A stretch of DNA of 57,414 bases from Deltaproteobacteria bacterium (GCA_016202395.1 JACQOV010000051.1:1-57414), one strand, 5' to 3'. Shown: positions 4,157 through 52,621, numbered from the stretch's first letter. The notes: generated by a model not told the origin, from the sequence alone. Numbers and translations are program-made.

Positions 4157-4172
4157 TGGCATGTTTCTTGCA
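4157..4172 (+). promoter_or_regulatory. sigma54 (-24/-12) promoter
   Basis: TGGCATGTTTCTTGCA: GG-N10-GC, 24 nt upstream of ATG 4196. Confidence 0.85.
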
Positions 4173-4195
4173 GAAGTTGTAAATTTGCAGGATTT

Positions 4196-6295
4196 ATGAT
4201 TAGGTTATCCCACAAAATGGTTTATCCGATATTACCTCTTTTAATGATTTTGTTGACCGTTGCTTTGGGATGTGGAAAGGGGGACCTCTCAGGGAGTAGC
4301 AGTTCCTACGTTTCGGAGGAGGGGGGAGAGACGACCCTTCTTGCCCCACCGATGCCTACCGATCCAACTCCTAATACCACAAGTTCGGCGATTGGGATCA
4401 GCGCCCCTTATGAAGAAGATGGTCGAGTGATTCTTCGATCTCAGGAAGCCTTTAAGGTCGACGGGAAAGTTTACAATGGGGAATTTTCGATCTCAATCGA
4501 TAGTGTGGGCACATTATTGGAAACAGCCTCGGCAGAAGAAGGAACCTTTGAAGTGACCCTGAAATCGACCTCTTCGGAGTTACAACCGGGGACAGTTTTG
4601 TGTATTTCGATTGTGAACTTCTCAGGATGTATTGAAAAACTTACCGTTCCTGAAATAGGTTTGTTAAGCATCAGTCCCGTAGGGGCTGAGATTGGCGAAA
4701 AGGTAGTCTTCGAAGGGAACCGGTTCCATTTAGGCGGGGATCGGGTTTTCTTCAATGGTGTTTCAGCGACCGATGTTTCAGAGGTTCAATTTATAGATCA
4801 AGATGGCGTTACGAATTCGATCATCAGCGCCACAGTCCCTGAAGGGGCCACATCCGGCCCGGTGTGGATTGAGGTTTCTACAACAGGAGAAACCCTGACA
4901 AGTCACAAAATCCCATTCAGGGTGCTCGAGGTTTCGGAACTGTCGGCTCCTTTGGAGGTAGATCCAGGCTATGAGGCTTTTGGAAGCGCCATGACATTCT
5001 TGGATTTTGATGGGAGCGGTATAGACGATATTGTGATCGGTGATCCCAAATATGATGATGGAGACGTTGAAGACGTTGGGATCGTCGTGATCTATCGGGA
5101 TGGAAATCCCAACGATATTATTCGCATTCGTGGCGAGAGAGAGGATGAGAGATTTGGGGTCTCTCTGGCAAAAACAGAGATTCACGGAGAGGCGTTGGTC
5201 GTTAGCGCGCTGGGTCCCTCGAAGGGGACAGGAAGCCTTCATATCTTTTATGGTGAAACAGTGGGTTTAAAAACAGAGCTTCTTTCCGGCGATGCCGATG
5301 TGATTCTTGAAGATCTAAACCTTTTTACGGCTGTAGAGAAGAATTTCATGGGGGGATCTCCGAAAGTCTCTCCCATTTCTGAACTTGATATTTTTTCGGA
5401 GATGTCGGTCTTCCATGGCAATTCGTTAGGTTGGTCCATTGCGGTTGCGGGAAAGATCGATGGAGATGATCTCGAAGACCTGATCGTAGGTCGTCCCAAT
5501 TGGGATCGAGACCGGGGGGAGGTTTACATCCTTTTTGGGAAGGATCTCCAGTCTCAAAAAGTGATCAGTCATATCGATGACATTCCCCACATCACGATTC
5601 AGGGATCTGCAGAGGGGGATCTTTTTGGGGAAGCGGTCTCGGGGCTCGGAGATGTGAACGGAGATGGACAGGACGATTTCATGGTCGGGGCCCCCGCATT
5701 GGGGGTGAGTTATCTCTTTTTGGGAGGGAATGATCTATGGGTTGAAGGGAATGTGCTTTCCTCTAACGAGGCCAATGGGGTCATTGCTTCACCTAGGGTT
5801 GGAGACCGATTCGGATCGACGATTGTTCGGGCGGGGGATATAAACCAGGATGGGTTGAACGATATCCTTATCGGCGCCCCTGGCGATGGCGTGGTAAATC
5901 TCTTTTTTGGAAGCGACTCCCTTCTGGAGAGTCAGACAACCGCTTTGGATGCCGACGCCATCCTTAAGGATGTCTCTGAAGATTCCCTCTTTGGCGATTC
6001 GCTCGCTTTTGGCGATATCAACGGGGACGGCTTCCAGGATCTCTTTGTTGGAGGTGAAGAAAAGGTTCATGTCTTCTTGATCAATACAGGGCGCTTTTGT
6101 TCTTCTGTGGATTGCCAGTTCTTAGTTTCGAATCCAGATCTTATTTTACAGACTGAGAAAGAGCAGATCGGAAGCGGTTTTGGTGGCGCTATTGCCGCCG
6201 ATGGGGATGTCGATGGGGATGGGTTTGAGGACTTTCTCATTGGGGCGCCTGGAAGCAATAAAGTGTTTCTCTATAAGTCCCCTGAGGAGTTATGA
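4196..6295 (+). CDS. Lipoprotein with IPT/TIG-like domain and FG-GAP (integrin alpha-like) beta-propeller
   Basis: Lipobox VALGC; ISPVGAEIGEKVVFEG...VFFNG (IPT-like); repeated FGxxxA..GD(V/I)NGDGxxD(F/I/L)xxGAP motifs. Confidence 0.88.
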   Translation: MIRLSHKMVYPILPLLMILLTVALGCGKGDLSGSSSSYVSEEGGETTLLAPPMPTDPTPNTTSSAIGISAPYEEDGRVILRSQEAFKVDGKVYNGEFSISIDSVGTLLETASAEEGTFEVTLKSTSSELQPGTVLCISIVNFSGCIEKLTVPEIGLLSISPVGAEIGEKVVFEGNRFHLGGDRVFFNGVSATDVSEVQFIDQDGVTNSIISATVPEGATSGPVWIEVSTTGETLTSHKIPFRVLEVSELSAPLEVDPGYEAFGSAMTFLDFDGSGIDDIVIGDPKYDDGDVEDVGIVVIYRDGNPNDIIRIRGEREDERFGVSLAKTEIHGEALVVSALGPSKGTGSLHIFYGETVGLKTELLSGDADVILEDLNLFTAVEKNFMGGSPKVSPISELDIFSEMSVFHGNSLGWSIAVAGKIDGDDLEDLIVGRPNWDRDRGEVYILFGKDLQSQKVISHIDDIPHITIQGSAEGDLFGEAVSGLGDVNGDGQDDFMVGAPALGVSYLFLGGNDLWVEGNVLSSNEANGVIASPRVGDRFGSTIVRAGDINQDGLNDILIGAPGDGVVNLFFGSDSLLESQTTALDADAILKDVSEDSLFGDSLAFGDINGDGFQDLFVGGEEKVHVFLINTGRFCSSVDCQFLVSNPDLILQTEKEQIGSGFGGAIAADGDVDGDGFEDFLIGAPGSNKVFLYKSPEEL

Positions 6296-51006: not shown

Positions 51007-52581
51007 TTAGTCCGACGATTCTAGCGATTGACAAGATCCATTTCCGCATTCTTTGAGTTGCAAGAGCCACTTTTCGAGGGTTTCCCGTTGTGCTCCATAG
51101 TTTTCCGCATTGTGAAGGCTTTCCAGTTGATAGGGATCGTTACTCAGATCATAGAGCTCGCGAGAGTTCTCCTCGTCCTCATACATCACGTAGACATACA
51201 TCACGTAGAGATGATTGGGGGTATCCGTTTCCCTAGATCCGGTTCGTATGGCGGAAAAGGTGGGGGGATACATATCTCCAATTCCATAATTTTCGATAAG
51301 GAACCGCTTTCTCCAATCGGATCGCTCTGGATCTTCCAGCAGGGGAATTAAGGATCGACCATCCACGGGAATGCCCGGTGTAGCATCCGCTAGATCCACG
51401 ATGGTTGGAGCGAGATCGTTGTTAAGAACGATCTGCTGGATTTCCTCAGATCCCGAAGAATCTGGCACTCGGAGGTAAAGAGGAACCCGAATCGATTCCT
51501 CATAGGCGTAAGATTTATATTGGTTGAGGCGATGCTCTCCCAAAAGGTAACCGTTATCGGAAGTAAAAATAAGAACTGTGTTGTCTAAGCGTTTCGTTGC
51601 TTCTAAGGCCTCTACGATCGTTTTAATGAGGTCATCGGCCGAGCGGAGGGCTTCCAATCGATTCTGAAAGATTGTTTCCGCGCAATCGGCTTGATTGGAG
51701 CTCATAGAAGCGATCTCCTGCAACCAATAAGGCTTGTCGCTCATCTCCTCCTCGTTAAAGGAAGGGGATCGAGGGAGTGAGATCGATTGCAGCGTTCCCG
51801 CATATTTTTCGGAGGGGCGAACCGTCAGTTGGAAACCGGCGCTTGTGGTACAATCCAAAAGAGCTGAGAAGGTCCCTTCTAGATGGACGGCAAGGGGTGT
51901 CACAACGAAGAACAAAGGCTCCATGCGGGTCGAATATTTTTGAATGAGCTCAGAGGCCCGTTGGCCGAGAAGATCTGTTTGGTATTCGTTGAGATGTATT
52001 CGAATATCACCGTTTTCGTTCATCTTATAGTTGTACATGTTGTAAGTGGACCAGTCGACCAAGGCGTGCCATTCATTCCATCCCGGAGGAATATAAGTTT
52101 CCTCTGTCTCTATACCGTATTCGTTTAAATATTTTCCGATGTGTCCTGTGATATATCCTTGGCGTTGGAGCCAAACCCCAAGGGTCTCGGAGTCCTCCAG
52201 TGCGGTCACTCCTCCTCCTTCTGACGTTGTGTTAGAGAATACCCTGTGATTGTGAGAGTATTGCCCCGTGAGAAAAGTGGCTCGGGAAGGGCAACAAAGC
52301 GAGTTTGTTACGAACGATTCTGTGAATGTAATTCCGGAATCGACGAAGTACTTTTTAAGGGAGGGCATCCATCCCCTTTGAACCAATGTTTCAACAGACC
52401 TTACATCGAGATCGTCGAGCATGATCACTACGATGTTGACAGGGTTTTTCTCTGAAGCCACAGTGGAGGAACTTTCAGGAGAGGCCTCCGATGTTGCGGA
52501 TTCCGATCCCTCGTTCCTATTTCCACAACCCTTTAAGAAGAGAATGGTGATTGCGCTCAAGAGAATAGCAACGGTTGTCAT
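51007..52581 (-). CDS. Sulfatase lipoprotein (Cys-type, N-acetylglucosamine-6-sulfatase-like)
   Basis: NIVVIMLDD, SLCCPSRATFLTG (CxPxR), GKYLN, FTSDNGY; lipobox LKGC; start moved to MTTV because the promoter overlaps the longer ORF start. Confidence 0.92.
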   Translation of the reverse strand: MTTVAILLSAITILFLKGCGNRNEGSESATSEASPESSSTVASEKNPVNIVVIMLDDLDVRSVETLVQRGWMPSLKKYFVDSGITFTESFVTNSLCCPSRATFLTGQYSHNHRVFSNTTSEGGGVTALEDSETLGVWLQRQGYITGHIGKYLNEYGIETEETYIPPGWNEWHALVDWSTYNMYNYKMNENGDIRIHLNEYQTDLLGQRASELIQKYSTRMEPLFFVVTPLAVHLEGTFSALLDCTTSAGFQLTVRPSEKYAGTLQSISLPRSPSFNEEEMSDKPYWLQEIASMSSNQADCAETIFQNRLEALRSADDLIKTIVEALEATKRLDNTVLIFTSDNGYLLGEHRLNQYKSYAYEESIRVPLYLRVPDSSGSEEIQQIVLNNDLAPTIVDLADATPGIPVDGRSLIPLLEDPERSDWRKRFLIENYGIGDMYPPTFSAIRTGSRETDTPNHLYVMYVYVMYEDEENSRELYDLSNDPYQLESLHNAENYGAQRETLEKWLLQLKECGNGSCQSLESSD

Positions 52582-52605
52582 TTTACGGTCCACGAGAGGA
52601 TTTAA

Positions 52606-52621
52606 TGCAAAGAGCATGCCA
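52606..52621 (-). promoter_or_regulatory. sigma54 (-24/-12) promoter
   Basis: TGGCATGCTCTTTGCA on the minus strand. Confidence 0.85.

Follow-up and report, generated by a model that had tools for sequence, protein, structure and literature searches.

Sigma-54-type promoters of a deltaproteobacterial Rhs island share an enhancer-like palindrome with promoters of exported proteins across the genome

What does it mean for a small bacterial genome to carry six sigma-54-type promoters within one block of about 48 kb, and do these promoters make the block a single regulon? The question is raised by a stretch of 57,414 nucleotides (nt) from a Deltaproteobacteria bacterium (GCA_016202395.1, JACQOV010000051.1:1-57414), referred to below as the window, which is the entire contig C28 of a 1.9-Mb metagenome-assembled genome (108 contigs, 89% complete). 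Housekeeping genes identified with Pfam occupy both ends of the window (GGDEF, HD, enoyl-CoA hydratase and SDR genes on the left; argH, lysA, dapF and dapA on the right), and the ~48-kb block between them, the island, encodes, among other products, two giant SpvB/TcdB_midN/RHS shell proteins of 2452 and 1666 amino acids (aa) and 17 cassette proteins of ~330-430 aa, in which a signal peptide is followed directly by the start of the Rhs core (FYLTDHLGSTRVVT...YYPYGE). The initial annotation proposed that six -24/-12 elements with a GG-N10-GC core unite the island in one regulon. According to our analysis it is rather likely that the six elements are standard RpoN promoters, that five of them share an enhancer, and that the island forms the largest part of a sigma-54 programme which spans the genome and covers exported and surface proteins.

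All six elements were recovered at the positions and on the strands that the annotation had given them (6/6), and each fits the promoter consensus used here, TGGCAC-N5-TTGCW, with at most one mismatch. They are named after their first coordinate: P4157 (TGGCATGTTTCTTGCA, 4157..4172, plus strand, 20.1 bits) ends 23 nt before the ATG at 4196; P12188 (TGGTACGATTCTTGCA, 12188..12203, plus, 20.5 bits) ends 29 or 41 nt before an ATG at 12233 or 12245; P15045 (TGGCACAGGTTTTGCA, 15045..15060, plus, 22.2 bits) lies 50 nt from the ATG at 15111; P29556 (CGGCACGCTTTTTGCA, 29556..29571, minus, 21.3 bits) 40 nt from that at 29515; P29951 (TGGCACACCTTTTGCA, 29951..29966, plus, 16.8 bits) 80 nt from that at 30047; and P52606 (TGGCATGCTCTTTGCA, 52606..52621, minus, 25.3 bits) 24 nt from that at 52581. 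The distances of 23-80 nt, all in the correct orientation, agree with the 24-80 nt proposed before. In the whole window the consensus was matched eight times against 1.02 expected, and none of 100 shuffles reached this count; six of the eight matches are intergenic and aimed at a gene, and the other two (2589, minus strand; 45874, plus strand) are intragenic, which is approximately the number due to chance. A position weight matrix (PWM), trained on 52 well-placed sites from other contigs, scores the six sites at 16.8-25.3 bits, with the element at 2589 as the sole other match of at least 10 bits in the window, so that the scan against background bore the prediction out. Transcription would be predicted to start at these elements and to depend on RpoN. 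No -24/-12 element was found before the flanking housekeeping genes listed above, as had been noticed already; argH has instead a sigma-70-type promoter, TTGACA-17-TAAGCT (52837-52865, plus strand), invariant in three relatives whose ArgH is 71-89% identical. Sigma-70-like and terminator-like matches were no commoner than chance throughout.

The same matrix finds about 65 sites of at least 16 bits in the genome, approximately one per 30 kb, with a bimodal distribution of scores, and 61 of them are placed before a gene. It had been claimed that every first gene of the island encodes an exported protein. This stood for the island itself, where all six first products begin with a basic stretch and a hydrophobic stretch and mostly possess a lipobox-like cysteine (VALGC, ELGC, LTGC, FTTC, a signal peptide reading ...SSGWA, and LKGC; judged by eye and with a crude heuristic, not a trained predictor), but it is not a mark of the island, as 50 of the 61 sigma-54 targets genome-wide have a signal-peptide-like or lipobox-like start by the same crude heuristic, against 35% of all genes. 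With ~61 such promoters in the genome and exported products behind 50 of them, neither a shared sigma factor nor an exported first gene can therefore define an island regulon. Six promoters in the window compare with about two expected from its size, and contigs C57 and C95 are comparably dense. Paralogous shell pairs on C95 (5182-20305; 3187 and 1832 aa) and C29 (1742-16224; 3053 and 1750 aa) each stand behind a sigma-54 promoter; on C95 (2304-25867) an activator of 940 aa, whose start resembles a membrane anchor, comes before the pair and four cassettes come after it. Cassette arrays on C104, C95, C96 and C42 are headed by sigma-54 promoters as well. Altogether ~58 Rhs cassettes are spread over more than 20 contigs, 16 of them without a sigma-54 promoter and 15 cut by contig ends; just 27 of the 58 stand behind such a promoter, which does not support the island as one regulon.

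The regulon that we suggest is defined by an enhancer rather than by a shared sigma factor, and it reaches well beyond the island. The enhancer surfaced only from a genome-wide contrast of sigma-54 upstream regions with other intergenic DNA, where TGTTAAA was the top 7-mer (30 in 16 kb against 15 in 113 kb). GTTAA-N6-TTAAC is found in 12 copies with the 6-nt spacer and in 0-2 copies with any other spacer tried, and nine of these 12 precede a sigma-54 promoter. The enhancer consensus used below is an 18-bp palindrome, TGTKAA-N6-TTMACA. Upstream zones, taken as 40-320 nt before sigma-54 promoters, make up 0.89% of the genome and hold 12 of its 16 exact copies (0.14 expected) and 23 of its 33 copies with one mismatch (0.29 expected); 30 of these 35 in-zone sites are on other contigs, at 15 other sigma-54 promoters. 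Tandem pairs spaced 21-27 bp, with up to two mismatches, number 14, of which 12 have a spacing of 24-25 bp and 13 precede a sigma-54 promoter, as a rule near -160 and -185. The targets outside the island include an alpha/beta-hydrolase lipoprotein (C11), a thrombospondin-type-3-repeat lipoprotein (C58), a subtilase lipoprotein (C93), an outer-membrane beta-barrel protein, a 1408-aa lipoprotein-like protein and the activator gene on C95, a five-cassette array (C104) and several exported proteins without a Pfam match, and some of these promoters adjoin two other activator genes. Co-regulation would thus operate on a regulon defined by this enhancer, with about 20 promoters of exported proteins spread over the genome.

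The window contains five enhancer matches with at most one mismatch, where 0.25 would be expected, and each of them precedes a claimed promoter by 158-211 nt. P4157 is preceded by the pair TGTGATGGATTGTTAACA (3961-3978) and TGTGAAGTCCACTTAACG (3985-4002), with one mismatch each, 24 bp apart, at -188/-164; P52606 has the pair TGTGAAGGGTCGTTCATA (52771-52788) and CGTTAAAAAAACTTAACA (52796-52813), also with one mismatch each, 25 bp apart, at -158/-183; and P29556 and P29951 share one perfect copy, TGTGAAGTTAGATTCACA (29732-29749), at -169 from the former and -211 from the latter. A degenerate pair, TGTGAAGGATTGCTGACA (14817-14834) and TGTAAGAGGATCTTCACA (14841-14858), 24 bp apart, stands at -220/-196 of P15045. 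Since the same 18-bp enhancer occurs at five promoters, these would probably answer to the same AAA+ activator or to close relatives of it, which makes a joint expression of shells, cassettes and lipoproteins, as proposed by the annotation, plausible for the five; P12188 falls outside it. One activator site common to all six, as a single regulon would require, was not found: P12188 has no enhancer and no motif unites the five independent upstream regions of the island. A k-mer search of these regions, with and without the related locus L015 described below, returned just a repetitive extragenic palindromic (REP) repeat and A/T-rich words.

A few enhancer copies have no detectable sigma-54 promoter nearby (C27:4091 and C27:4168; C97:4470 and C97:4495). 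One such set immediately precedes C27:4356-5831, the activator gene most closely paralogous to that of the island, and may reflect autoregulation or repression at a non-sigma-54 promoter. A metagenome scan for the perfect tandem enhancer pair returned 36 loci, mostly unrelated 24-nt tandem repeats, and two of the loci have a sigma-54 site nearby.

Between the enhancer and the promoter a third kind of element can be recognised, with similarity to the binding consensus of integration host factor (IHF), written here as WATCAANNNNTTR. In the 120 nt before sigma-54 promoters, exact copies show a 7.6-fold enrichment and favour the positions -27/28, -38/43 and -48/53, and with one mismatch allowed 51% of sigma-54 promoters have the box, compared with 4% of control windows. 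At this threshold it is found in the island at four of the six promoters: P12188 (TTTCAATTAGTTA, 12161-12173, one mismatch, at the commonest position, -27), P15045 (ATTCAATCCCTTG, 14993-15005, one mismatch), P29556 (AAACAAGTGGTTA, 29596-29608, minus strand, one mismatch) and P29951 (AATCAAAAGATTA, 29908-29920, exact consensus). P4157 and P52606 have boxes with two mismatches; that of P4157 (AATTAGATAGTTA, 4117..4129, plus strand, two mismatches to WATCAANNNNTTR) begins 40 nt upstream of the -24 element and is weak when taken alone, as 16% of control intergenic windows equal it. The suggested module would consist, in order, of a distal activator site, an IHF-type bending box and the -24/-12 element.

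The genes required for such a mechanism are present. An rpoN gene is encoded on contig C78 (PF04552 match, 208 bits, a 473-aa open frame), and the genome has three HU/IHF-family genes and 13 genes with the full sigma-54 interaction domain (PF00158). One of the latter, a bacterial enhancer-binding protein of the island (6292..8610, plus strand), comprises TPR repeats (TPR_12), an AAA+ domain (PF00158, 6.7e-63) and a Fis-type HTH (HTH_8), with GAFTGA intact, Walker A GETGTGKE and Walker B LFLDEV, and has no receiver domain. It is the second gene behind P4157 and the only activator gene in the window. If this protein binds the enhancer, it would amplify its own expression, and it is a reasonable candidate for a self-activating switch, though no more than a candidate.

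Conservation could be followed at one locus. Among 5.8 billion proteins the TPR domain of the island activator has one true ortholog, a protein of 771 aa with 56% identity and the same domain order, encoded at locus L015; a scan of the genome_contigs collection for a TPR-domain ortholog returned none. The pair of FG-GAP lipoprotein and activator genes is retained in L015. Its lipoprotein gene is preceded, at 75 nt, by a sigma-54 site of 22.3 bits, and the enhancer pair stands at -189/-165 (7593, no mismatches; 7617, two mismatches), against -188/-164 at P4157; a neighbouring Rhs cassette gene of L015 has its own 23.4-bit promoter. On the other side of the island, the contig of a relative with 89% ArgH identity (L016) includes a part of the argH-sulfatase spacer, in which the enhancer copy at 52796 is identical. 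L015 also contains, as a separate observation, a 26-bit sigma-54 site (2344-2359, minus strand) directed into the 3' ends of convergent queuosine-pathway genes, with no gene called downstream; a small RNA might be transcribed from it, or a small open reading frame (ORF) that escaped the gene calls.

These observations have to be weighed against other explanations. The simplest of them, that the motifs are chance or non-functional matches in AT-rich intergenic DNA, can appeal to the two extra intragenic matches in the window, which indicate that the motif arises by chance at about the expected rate; the six sites, however, are all intergenic, correctly oriented, close to a start codon and part of an eightfold excess over expectation, they have enhancers and IHF-like boxes at fixed positions beside them, and one promoter-enhancer arrangement is conserved in L015, so that this explanation deserves almost no credence. 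A regulon restricted to the island, in which the activator at 6292-8610 would be dedicated to switching the six promoters and no others, would agree with the place of this gene as the sole activator of the window inside the first sigma-54 unit, with the conservation in L015 of the lipoprotein and activator genes together with their promoter and the geometry of their enhancer, beside cassette genes that have their own sigma-54 promoter, and with the presence of own adjoining activators at other shell and cassette clusters (C95, C57). Against it stand the 15 off-island promoters with the same enhancer, among them those of the activator gene on C95 and of the cassette array on C104, the lack of the enhancer at P12188, and the finding that no motif is both common to the six promoters and confined to the island. 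We consider such a dedicated switch unlikely, and the initial proposal of the island as one regulon is not supported, on the same grounds, given also the ~65 strong sites and 13 activators of the genome.

It is, on the other hand, possible, if doubtful, that the six promoters have nothing but the sigma factor in common and belong to several regulons, with different activators, with similar enhancers read by paralogs and with no expression of the island as a block. The 13 activators with differing recognition helices speak for it, as do the variation of the enhancer half-sites between TGTTAA and TGTGAA and the peculiarities of P15045, which has a unique 24-nt palindrome and degenerate enhancer copies only, and of P12188, which has none. 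A clearly separate regulon does exist in the same genome: a second palindrome, TTGTAACAGATCTGTTACAA, single or doubled, is found 112-160 nt upstream of four other sigma-54 promoters (C55:10037, C79:20227, C88:5703 and C106:2065), two of which head activator genes, so regulons are distinguishable here by their enhancers. The enhancers at the five island promoters are nevertheless alike in spacer length, in tandem spacing (24-25 bp) and in distance to the promoter, and one binding protein would be the simplest explanation. We therefore keep to the reading of the island as the largest block of a genome-wide programme, read from five promoters through one type of enhancer, and several findings weigh against this reading too. 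P12188 is the weakest of the six promoters: where all 52 training sites have C following the -24 GG, it has T, and no enhancer is detectable within 390 nt of it, even at three mismatches. Both enhancer copies of P15045 have two mismatches, and this promoter has the additional genome-unique palindrome GATGACGCAATGCATTGCGTCATC. The K/M degeneracy of the enhancer consensus was picked post hoc from the variants and was not preset, with support from sites outside the window; the definitions of upstream zones, gene calls and signal peptides are crude heuristics of our own; and only one ortholog locus, L015, was available for comparison, for P4157 only. In the HTH alignment the recognition helices differ among all 13 activators and provide no link to the enhancer motif, and several paralogous activators might share or split the enhancer sites.

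The suggested mechanism has well-known counterparts. At glnAp2, nifH and Pu, enhancer-dependent sigma-54 promoters are activated by NtrC, NifA and XylR, respectively, with looping assisted by IHF, and the sites of NifA are written TGT-N10-ACA. The present system resembles them in the GG-N10-GC core with its TGGCAC/TTGCA flanks, in an IHF-type box in between, in an AAA+ activator with GAFTGA and a Fis-type HTH, and in palindromic activator sites more than 100 nt upstream, which are often paired. It differs from NifA in the spacer, which is TGT-N12-ACA here rather than N10, with the 6-nt spacing of GTTAA and TTAAC only, and from all three in a local activator that has TPR repeats instead of a receiver, GAF or V4R sensor, as well as in targets that are exported proteins and Rhs/Tc-like shells and not nitrogen or catabolic genes. 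Sigma-54, type VI secretion systems (T6SS) and Rhs proteins have been linked in other species. VasH is a sigma-54 activator encoded within the T6SS cluster of Vibrio cholerae, where it switches on hcp and effector operons. As with VasH, the activator gene described here is inside a toxin-delivery island, with sigma-54 promoters before operons of exported weaponry; unlike there, the products have Sec or lipoprotein signals, and the enhancer is common to many loci outside the island. No T6SS genes were seen in the window. The programme proposed here also agrees with the theme of a cross-species survey in which sigma-54 was described as a 'central controller of the bacterial exterior' (Francke et al. 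2011 BMC Genomics 12:385, PMC3162934), since ~80% of the sigma-54 targets predicted here start with an exported, lipoprotein or pilin-like product; it differs from that survey in the extreme bias within one small genome and in targets that include arrays of Rhs cassettes.

The mechanism is thus a textbook one and its wider significance is modest; the targets alone, Rhs/Tc-like shells and cassettes, are unusual. What is obtained is a wiring diagram for an uncultured lineage, with ~60 sigma-54 promoters, one enhancer at ~20 of them and a candidate self-activating switch. It ties the Rhs shells and cassette arrays to secreted hydrolases and adhesin-like lipoproteins in one probable expression programme, which suggests that the cassettes are deployed on a signal and not constitutively. 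This programme may serve attack, adhesion or a developmental stage, as first supposed. We may even speculate, and only tentatively, that one sigma-54 activator turns on, through TGTKAA-N6-TTMACA, a whole contact or attack secretome at once, which would consist of the Rhs/Tc-like shells, the separately exported Rhs cassette arrays, a sulfatase, a protease, an esterase and adhesin-like lipoproteins, and that this activator may be the TPR protein of the island, reinforcing its own expression. If this doubtful proposal were true, it would offer the first way into the regulation of a 'split Rhs' system, together with a set of markers of a predatory or epibiotic lifestyle.

Beside the shells and cassettes, the island encodes lipoproteins without a Pfam match, one FG-GAP lipoprotein, the TPR-AAA+-HTH sigma-54 activator, a sulfatase lipoprotein and a Y1 (RAYT-like) transposase (13762-14733). 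Its genes, apart from the transposase, are all covered by six co-directional runs, 4196-12081, 12245-13743, 15111-27101, 29515-27140 (minus strand), 30047-48383 and 52581-48417 (minus strand), each of which may be a single transcript. The first unit, behind P4157, includes the FG-GAP lipoprotein (4196-6295), the activator (6292-8610) and two lipoproteins (8646-11030 and 11017-12081). P12188 precedes one lipoprotein-like gene (12233/12245-13743), which might additionally be reached by read-through from the first unit. Behind P15045 a lipoprotein gene (15111-16820) is followed by ten Rhs-core cassettes up to 27101, and behind P29556, on the minus strand, there is one lipoprotein gene (29515-27140). 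The fifth unit, that of P29951, contains the Tc BC-like/Rhs shells (30047-37333 and 37414-42414) and then five cassettes up to 48383; the sixth, that of P52606, on the minus strand, contains the sulfatase lipoprotein (52581-51007) and two cassettes (50984-49812 and 49640-48417).

Three other sequences were considered as shared elements and rejected. The perfect 24-nt palindrome GATGACGCAATGCATTGCGTCATC (14953..14976) is 81 nt upstream of P15045; its half-site TGCGTCA, which recurs at 29881 and 52815, is present at three island promoters and at none of 54 others, yet the full palindrome is unique in the genome, and the copy at 52815 is lost in L016. GATGACGCAATGCATTGCGTCATC may be the site of a second regulator, for the ten-cassette operon alone. 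A 25-nt repeat, TAGTTAGATAGTTAGGTCTGACCCC (also written ATAGTTAGATAGTTAGGTCTGACCCC), was tried as an enhancer of P15045 and of P29556/P29951 and dismissed, being REP-like, located beside the transposase and between cassettes, and absent from other promoters. It has seven copies in the window, six of them exact and the one at 49781 with three mismatches: 13744-13768 (minus), 14787-14811 (plus), 18881-18905 (minus), 29699-29723 (minus), 43658-43682 (minus), 46047-46071 (minus) and 49781-49805 (plus). An inverted pair of these copies flanks the transposase gene and the remaining copies sit between cassettes; elsewhere in the genome just two degenerate copies were found (C46, C59). The third candidate, GTTGACA/TTGACA, which precedes several island promoters, is a generic -35-like word, no different in frequency (1.47 per kb) from intergenic DNA at large (1.31 per kb), and its copy at 52837 belongs to the conserved argH promoter.

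The closest matches of ArgH are metagenome proteins with 89, 79 and 71% identity, and the named ones, in Thermodesulfobacteriota, Binatia, Nitrospirota and 'Deltaproteobacteria', do not exceed 60%; the lineage is therefore deep-branching and unplaced. The argH contigs of the three relatives end at argH or diverge just upstream of it, and in two of the relatives they stop just upstream of this gene, which suggests that the island or its repeats break the assemblies of the relatives near argH. At the other end of the window, the additional 18.8-bit element noted above (TGGCAAGCCTGTTGCA, 2589-2604, minus strand) lies antisense within the enoyl-CoA hydratase gene with no ORF downstream, and it could be a chance occurrence or an intragenic or antisense sigma-54 site.

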